A DNA stretch of 64,000 bases, from positions 44,268,001-44,332,000 of the forward strand of contig NC_083281.1 of assembly GCF_963506605.1 (NCBI RefSeq). The letters are read 5' to 3'. Shown piece after piece: positions 49,287-50,277 of the stretch; position 1 is the stretch's first letter; each line of letters starts with the position of its first letter. Source of the DNA: Zootoca vivipara. Its lineage: Eukaryota. The notes below the pieces were generated by a model. The model was given only the letters and a program-made list of their open reading frames with translations. It did not search any database and was not told the origin of the DNA. The position numbers and the translations under genes are program-made.

Positions 49287-50277
49287 CAGTGATGGTGGAC
49301 CTATGACACGCGTGTCAGCACTGACACGCATAGCCATTTTTGGTGACACGTGGCCACATGCCGAGACCTCACTTCCGGCCGGCGGCGAAATGCCACAAGT
49401 GACGCATCTCTGGGGGCCTTGTGGACTTCCGGCGAGGCAAGATGGCGGTCGGCACAGAGCTGCGGAGCTCCTGAAAGTGACCAGCGCTGCAGGAGCTGCT
49501 GGACGGGCTCCTGAGCCACTGAAACTGCCTCCGCCACCGTCTGGACACTGGGGGTCACCAGTGCAGCAACCGGGGAGCTGTCGGACCCCACCCCCGCCCC
49601 GCGAACCTGACAGACAGCCTCGAGGCACTCCGGAGGCGGAAAAAGGAAGCCCCGGCCCCGCTGCCACTGCAGAAAGGAGGGAGAAAAGAAGGAAAAACAA
49701 GGCAAAGGAGAACGGGCCTGCTCGCTCCATTGCCATCCCCGTTGCCCCCGCCTCAAGGGAGAGGAGGGGGCCCTTGGAGGAGGGAGAAGAACCCCGACCT
49801 TGCTGCTGCCACCGGCGCCACCTTGCCGCTATCCCGGGAAGAGAGAAGAGACACCCAAGTAAGGTGAAACCCCTTCCCTGTTGCCCCGCCGCCACGCAAG
49901 CATACCGAGTGAGGGGAGAGATGGGATGAAGAGGACCACGAGGAGGCACAGGCCCAACCCAAGCCTAACCCCCCCCCCCCCAGCGGCAGACCCGTTGGAG
50001 GAAGGCCTGAGCCCAGAGTCCCACTGGGAAAGACCTCTGGGTTTTGCCTTATTTTTTCCCCTTTTAAATTTTTTTAAAAATTTTTTTAAAAAAACTTTAA
50101 TAATTTTTCCCTCCCCTTCCCCCCTTTTTTTAAAAAAGGGGAAACAATTATACATTTTTGTTATTTATAAATATCGCAAAATTATGGTTTATTTCTCGAA
50201 GTGACACACCACCTGAGTTATGTTCAGTTTTTTGGGTGAATTTTGACACACCAAGCTCAAAAGGTTGCCCATCACTG
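49287..50277 (+). mobile_element. OC1/Charlie-type hAT non-autonomous element with CpG-rich cargo
   Basis: TIR CAGTGATGGTGGACCT / AGGTTGCCCATCACTG, subterminal TGACAC repeats and perfect TSD CCTTAAGG (49279-49286, 50278-50285). Confidence 0.92.
49371..49448 (+). promoter_or_regulatory. Promoter-like motif cluster inside hAT cargo (ETS x2, CRE-like, YY1)
   Basis: ACTTCCGG at 49371 and 49425, GTGACGCA at 49399 and CAAGATGGCGG at 49438, within CpG-dense DNA. Activity untested. Confidence 0.5.

Follow-up and report, generated by a model that had tools for sequence, protein, structure and literature searches.

Several systems close to the locus described here have been published, and the sections of those papers used in this work give the following picture. 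In Anolis, hAT-HT1_AC has a 16-bp terminal inverted repeat (TIR) CAGTGATGGSSAACCT, an 8-bp target site duplication (TSD) with a central TA (NTCTAGAN), an autonomous form of about 3 kb, a divergence of a few percent and a history of horizontal transfer (Novick et al., PMC3014272). According to the same source, Anolis also has composite hATs (hobo_AC) that acquire DNA foreign to them, pieces of retroelements among it, recombine between families and amplify their cargo. The Pack-TIRs of animals carry foreign sequence within a TIR element and move it with new TSDs (Tan et al., PMC8277862); four multicopy animal cases are given there, and one frog hAT carries the 5'UTR of a gene in three copies. 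In plants, Pack-MULEs show a bias to GC-rich 5' ends (PMC5861414).

As for retroelements, the 5'UTR of the lizard clade-1 L1s begins with the consensus GACTTCCGGTGN8ATGGCG, is long and CpG-rich, and is conserved across families over its first ~120 bp (Boissinot and Sookdeo, PMC5381506). In mouse zygotes, pieces of retroelements and of spliced mRNA are captured at CRISPR breaks with microhomology, the inserts being truncated at both ends (Ono et al., PMC4516963). It is an open question by what means a horizontally transferred DNA transposon comes to expression in its new host, and another how the TIR elements of animals acquire cargo.

We analysed a hAT transposon that lies in a stretch of 64,000 nucleotides, referred to below as the window. 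An earlier note on this DNA had seen in it the best candidate for an undescribed system in the window; this has to be withdrawn, given that composite non-autonomous hATs of lizards (PMC3014272) and animal Pack-TIRs (PMC8277862) were already in print, as was the 5'-end bias of Pack-MULEs. In the open literature searched, repeat databases apart, we found no report of a hAT carrying an amplified L1 5'UTR start.

Results

The focal element occupies positions 49287-50277 of the window (991 bp; all window features given with an orientation are on the forward strand) and is bounded on both sides by the perfect 8-bp TSD CCTTAAGG, at 49279-49286 and 50278-50285. It splits a SINE of the repeat family D1, whose 5' part, broken near its 3' end, lies at 49083-49278 and which resumes past the TSD with its 3' remainder and a (CTC)n tail (50286-50377); this SINE is 88-90% identical by BLAST to two other copies in the window, and 89% to the copy at 6160. 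The hAT 5' end (49287-49335), made of a 16-bp TIR as in hAT-HT1_AC and a subterminal part, is common to the sister families, being present as positions 1-49 in almost every one of 30 5'-TIR loci taken without selection, and the native 3' end with its TIR (50142-50277, family positions 858-995) is common to the sister families and to a transposase-bearing copy. The two TIRs agree at 13 of 16 positions, the 3' TIR fitting CAGTGATGGSSAACCT and the 5' TIR having two substitutions.

The interior is CpG-dense, with 67% GC and a CpG observed/expected ratio of 0.72 over 49345-49660 against 0.26 for the whole window. Ends, duplication and CpG density are thus as the earlier note had them, and every motif that it named is in its place, namely ACTTCCGG at 49371 and 49425, GTGACGCA at 49399, CAAGATGGCGG at 49438 and GTAAGG at 49859. 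The first GC-rich block (49351-49422), which contains ACTTCCGG, is shaped like another L1-type start; no free source of this ETS block was found, all 11 of its 11 pattern matches lying inside the family. A 19-mer at 49405-49423 stands directly 5' of the L1 start, followed by the L1 5' tip with ETS-like and YY1-like motifs (49423-49470) and by the remaining cargo derived from the L1 5'UTR (49471-50141), which comprises a GC-rich part, the donor-like site at 49859 and a T/A tract. We found no convincing ORF in the focal cargo.

From 63130 to the end of the window (64000) there is a second element of 1915 bp that extends beyond it (631-2545 of locus L031) and sits in what we take to be a CR1-like 3' end. 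It had been called copy 2; its ends are indeed the same, and its interior is a different one of L1 type, with about 1.1 kb of another L1 5'UTR that its relatives also have. The right TSD of this second element is apparently partly deleted. The window also holds, at 45355-46790, a GC-rich element in which inverted arms of 142 nt (45599-45740 and 46514-46655) flank a 38-bp tandem array; considered as a relative of the hAT, this inverted-repeat element (45599-46655) was rejected as unrelated.

The genome surveyed, which its hAT and L1 matches suggest is that of a lizard, comprises 1.44 Gb in 48 contigs. A cargo query of 701 nt gave 354 candidates, and all 40 scored matches, self excepted, span 657-701 nt at 83-90% identity. 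Each of the 30 loci fetched proved to be a hAT copy, 29 of them aligning end to end and one being without the 3' end; with all 40 scored matches long and all 30 fetched loci hAT copies, a host gene as donor of the focal cargo was rejected. The 8-bp TSD is perfect in 20 of the 30 copies and has at most one mismatch in 25, no two being the same, and two of the five misses are script boundary errors caused by indels. The element is therefore not a one-off insertion, and the idea that a non-autonomous hAT moved a promoter-type 5' segment stands, with many copies and distinct TSDs behind it. Divergence from the majority sequence outside CpG sites is 2-5% depending on the region (29 copies, the 3'-truncated one being dropped).

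The number of copies with the L1 start was estimated in two ways. A cargo 21-mer has 74 exact matches and occurs unchanged in 19 of the 30 copies, which gives about 115; the 5'-TIR pattern has 1199 matches, is exact in 18 of 30 copies and the tip occurs in 4 of 30 unselected loci, which gives about 270. We estimate that the family with the L1 start has roughly 100-300 copies in the genome. Its majority 5' end is CAGTGATGGCGAACCT, and among 105 distinct elements with TIRs and a perfect TSD, sister families included, the TSD has T at position 4 in 105 and A at position 5 in 99, a preference that fits the type NTCTAGAN.

Another, GC-poorer interior was found in 24 of 30 unselected 5'-TIR relatives and the tip is kept in only 4, so the L1 start is dispensable for mobility; the only segments common to the relatives are positions 1-49 and 858-995. 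There are many amplified internal-deletion forms of about 240 to 870 bp, many derivatives have deleted the L1 start and spread nonetheless, and several fuse the GC-poorer interior directly to transposase remnants.

From 49423 onward the cargo corresponds to the initial ~720 nt of an L1 5'UTR; its tip is identical at 26 of 26 positions to the start of intact L1s of this genome, and the remainder is colinear at ~65-70%. The 26-nt pattern has 35 matches in the genome, and among the 30 loci examined 20 belong to the focal hAT lineage, 6 to hAT-HT3-type hATs, 1 to an element that looks pogo/Tc2-like, and 3 to free L1s; under a strict scan 16 of these 30 tip loci have both TIRs about them. The three free L1s (8.67 kb, 97-99% alike) have a TSD, poly(A), an ORF1 of 362 aa and an endonuclease-RT ORF2 of 1287 aa, and they begin at the tip motif. 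The cargo tip thus has the L1 start GACTTCCGG...ATGGCG at the place where L1s bounded by TSDs begin. These L1s (L163, L164 and L166) form a young full-length family with an unusually long 5'UTR of ~2.6 kb, rich in T-tracts and microsatellites, and L164 has both ORFs open.

For a broader comparison we used 21 upstream regions of L1, that is, 20 of 150 L1 matches found by ORF1, picked across identity classes, and L164. In 11 of the 21 at least 20 of the 26 tip positions are identical to those of the window. An HMM of the family is colinear with L178 from position 137 to ~910-916 (E 4e-36), and also with L181, L173, L183 and L182; when both the tip and the T-tract are cut off, the match to L178 remains at E 8e-9, the best of the reversed controls reaching 0.009. 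Beyond the tip the youngest L1 alone gives a weak signal, its score of 78-84 comparing with shuffle maxima of 64-98. These alignments establish, at the level of sequence similarity, that the focal cargo derives from an L1 5'UTR and begins at its first nucleotides, and that it is not a host gene promoter; of the two donors that had been put forward, the L1 5'UTR is borne out and the first exon of a host gene is not.

The best free L1 is ~70% identical to the cargo over aligned columns, while the family itself is only 3-5% diverged, and no close L1 donor was found among the 21 upstream regions and 34 motif loci. The latter, newly fetched with the cargo 21-mer, are all hAT copies, 32 with the 5' TIR and 2 with the 5' TIR displaced; the L1 donor subfamily is therefore extinct, rare or unsampled. 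At two near-identical loci on C3 (L293 and L294) an antisense L1-like 5' end borders directly on the 5' side of the cargo, so that the 5' end of the hAT is displaced.

A remnant of the transposase tail led to L245 (G000:C12:31258500-31266500, minus strand), a copy of 3403 bp with the TSD GCTTAGGG and a transposase of ~644 codons broken by one stop, whose C-terminal piece has Dimer_Tnp_hAT. The protein is 83-92% identical to those of bat, poison frog and axolotl, the pattern of a horizontally transferred element. Judged by the TIR, the TSD type and the transposase, the focal family would belong with hAT-HT1 (a Charlie-like hAT).

The 3' third of the cargo lies 5' of this transposase ORF. Window positions 49907-50146 recur there with one internal gap, as family positions 638-675 and 722-862 (L245 720-757 and 753-894), and are followed by the 19-mer ~150 nt before the ATG. 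Another copy, L231 (1481 bp, TSD CCCTAAGG), consists of positions 1-860, a second 19-mer, 127 nt of L245-type leader and the transposase tail; in it the 19-mer forms a direct repeat that flanks the L1 segment, one copy preceding the L1 tip. At the 3' junction of the L1 segment neither L231 nor L245 has poly(A) or an A-rich site. The leader content of L245 and the join in L231 make it most likely that, before the deletion, the cargo, with the 19-bp repeat on both sides, belonged to the leader of an ancestor that had the transposase. The suspicion that the cargo is simply the native interior of the autonomous hAT is thus half justified: its 3' third stands in the leader of a transposase-bearing copy, and most relatives and the other derivatives with transposase remnants have a different interior.

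Searches for further forms added little. An empty pre-insertion element was sought with a pattern that gave 3 matches, all of known forms; no copy with both the L1 tip and the whole transposase was found; the first 30 of 74 matches to Pfam PF05699 included no autonomous partner with these ends; and among 9 matches to the transposase 5' half all but L245 were fragments. The best metagenome relatives of the transposase have 38-41% protein identity over long matches and were of no help for the native leader.

L245 carries other foreign pieces. Next to its 5' TIR is a front block with CCAAT/GC-box and GTAAGT, derived from another repeat, and behind the transposase stop, at positions 3018-3232, are 215 nt of the mRNA of an RRM protein (RRM_1; presumably RBM3-like), covering exons 1-3. 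Its start lies 31 nt past the TATA box of the gene, its three exons are spliced together where the gene has GT-AG introns, and at its far end it meets the hAT 3' region in a microhomology. The gene itself maps to C16 and a processed copy of it to C11; the alignment of gene, retrocopy and hAT is star-like, with about 3 gene-specific, 3-4 retrocopy-specific and 5 hAT-specific changes, and no retrocopy flank was found carried along in L245. The template may have been either the mRNA or the retrocopy.

L1 starts are present in three DNA-transposon types besides the focal hAT. In six loci with hAT-HT3-type ends (L133, L134, L146, L149, L153 and L155) this 26-nt L1 start lies 72 or 224 nt in from the 5' end, L146 having about 620 nt that are 73-76% like a young L1 5'UTR. 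L160, L165 and L162 represent two more DNA-transposon-like types with L1-like starts, one with the ends GGTTACCAGAT, and one presumably pogo/Tc2-like. Of these loci L160 and L165 are hAT-like, and in L165 one element bearing an L1 start is nested in another.

In the sister element L159 (TSD GTCTGGGG) an L1 start adjoins 1.3 kb that come, unspliced, from a GC-rich host locus present in a single copy (G000:C11:42013204-42015853), and by this make-up L159 is a true Pack-type hAT. Another hAT subfamily has a segment that resembles, at ~75%, the first-exon ends and the introns of genes clustered on C2. As a control, L1 3' ends were found inside hAT TIR pairs at 2 of 30 loci, and the contrast with the 27 of 30 for L1 5' starts is inflated by family amplification and is not proof of a capture bias. 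Judging by these composites, the hAT family captures foreign sequence often.

As to present function, CpG decay is 33-44% across the cargo, compared with 31% in the 5' end and 43% in the 3' end. The cargo CpGs have decayed like the ends, which points to germline methylation and not to a protected island; they are unprotected, unlike those of an active CpG-island promoter. The motifs of the window copy are only in part features of the family. The CRE-like GTGACGCA and the GTAAGG donor are minority variants: the former occurs in 7 of 29 aligned copies and the majority base gives GCGACGCA, so the T in GTGACGCA is a product of CpG decay, and AAGTAAGG is found in 3 of 29 copies against 22 of 29 for AAGTAAGC, the stronger donor being the minority state. 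As for the core AAGATGG, 27 of the 29 copies have it, and motif retention is at the level expected from 2-3% divergence. RNA depth was zero over 49310-49915 and the unique flank, in 6% of each of three runs mapped at 97% likeness, of unspecified tissue and with a species label that is possibly not that of the genome, which makes this a shallow sample. Among indexed runs no RNA data set with the sequence came up, a result that speaks neither for nor against expression. Most likely the present copies are silent passengers, and the promoter function once ascribed to them finds no backing in CpG decay or in RNA at the window locus.

Discussion

We hold it probable that an ancestor of hAT-HT1 type, still equipped with its transposase, received the start of an L1 5'UTR in its leader as a copy made during the repair of a break, likely by template switching, either onto L1 RNA or cDNA or onto L1 DNA. 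That ancestor would then have been trimmed by deletion to the 1-kb form, which hAT transposase would have mobilised in trans to an estimated 100-300 sites, and the copies would have been methylated in the germline afterwards and are now likely silent.

The family resembles hAT-HT1_AC and hAT-HT1N1_AC of Anolis in TIR, TSD, the ~3-kb autonomous form, low divergence and horizontal transfer; the Anolis derivative listed has 585 bp, L1 cargo not being mentioned in the sections of PMC3014272 consulted. With the composite hobo_AC elements it shares the uptake and amplification of foreign DNA; their cargo is read in that paper as fragments of the genome taken up by chance, old TE pieces among them, whereas ours begins at the first nucleotides of an L1, in sense, in the leader of the transposase, and recurs in several families. 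Like the Pack-TIRs (PMC8277862) it has a foreign interior, which differs from that of the sister families and matches L1 5'UTRs, and it has transposed again, as the 20 perfect and all-different TSDs show. Unlike them it does not hold non-TE host DNA with a parental locus, its cargo being L1-derived; only L159 does, and the frog example has three copies against our estimated 100-300. The GC-rich 5' cargo recalls the bias of Pack-MULEs (PMC5861414). The cargo agrees with the lizard clade-1 L1 5'UTR in start consensus, CpG richness and conserved beginning (PMC5381506), but it is only the first ~720 nt, has neither ORFs nor poly(A) and is moved by a DNA transposase. Break repair with reverse-transcribed products, as seen in mouse zygotes (PMC4516963), did not take place inside a transposon that then amplifies.

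A possible, though doubtful, extension of the capture history, and one compatible with it, is that the autonomous hAT, once horizontally transferred, adopted the L1 promoter and subsequently further promoter or first-exon modules so as to express its transposase in the germ line of the new host, the 1-kb family being a deleted remnant of that stage. It is the interesting extension of our preferred reading, and the L1 piece does lie in sense, 5' of the transposase leader, in a family whose transposase is so close to bat, frog and axolotl proteins. Other modules with promoter and donor-like site stand by the 5' TIR as well (a second L1 start, the CCAAT/GC-box block of L245 with GTAAGT, and a host first-exon end with intron), but they came from linked searches. 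The sole near-complete transposase copy is without the L1 tip, other transposase remnants are joined to the GC-poorer interior, and the bias of Pack-MULEs to GC-rich, open 5' ends arises without benefit to the element (PMC5861414).

Ordinary nesting, in which a full-length L1 entered the hAT by target-primed reverse transcription and deletions left its 5' end only, is, for the capture step alone, the chief rival, and we consider it rather unlikely. An insertion would agree with the start at the first nucleotides of L1 and with the direct repeat of 19 bp in L231, internal deletions are rife, and L1s do enter such elements, as the two L1 3' ends within hAT TIR pairs and the antisense L1-like start in L293 and L294 indicate. 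Yet poly(A), any remnant of an ORF and a TT/AAAA-type site are all missing from the 3' junction, so that of the marks of canonical insertion only the repeat is seen; the downstream 19-mer is kept though the adjoining L1 tail would have to be lost; and starts recur in several families, while each of the two 3' ends was met at one sampled locus. That the element is a mobile and still active host-gene promoter seeding new transcription starts, the strongest form of the earlier note, is very improbable: the CpG ratio of 0.72 and the intact ETS/YY1-like motifs of the window copy, with AAGATGG in 27 of 29 copies, suit it, but the cargo comes from an L1, not from a gene; its CpGs have decayed as much as those of the ends, its motifs are retained to the degree that a divergence of 2-3% predicts, and the shallow RNA runs showed nothing at the window locus.

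Returning to capture at a break, the family is young and numerous, includes both precursors and products of deletion, and has cargo that starts at the 5' ends of transcripts, so that RNA- versus DNA-templated capture and the borrowing of promoters become testable. A practical consequence concerns repeat annotation, which would go astray here, since 27 of the 30 examined exact matches to the L1 start motif lie in DNA transposons. Should the copies be nothing more than silent passengers, we have a new and tidy case of the chimerism known for lizard hATs; the front end of the L1, likely its promoter, may, however, once have driven the hAT's own transposase. We would even suggest, as a speculation that is unlikely but worth stating, that a transferred hAT rebuilt its transposase leader by repeatedly copying the 5' ends of transcripts at its own breaks, both L1 starts and the start of a spliced host mRNA, and used the L1 promoter for the transposase. 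If this is true, the promoter swapping known for L1 would have been done by a DNA transposon at the expense of L1.
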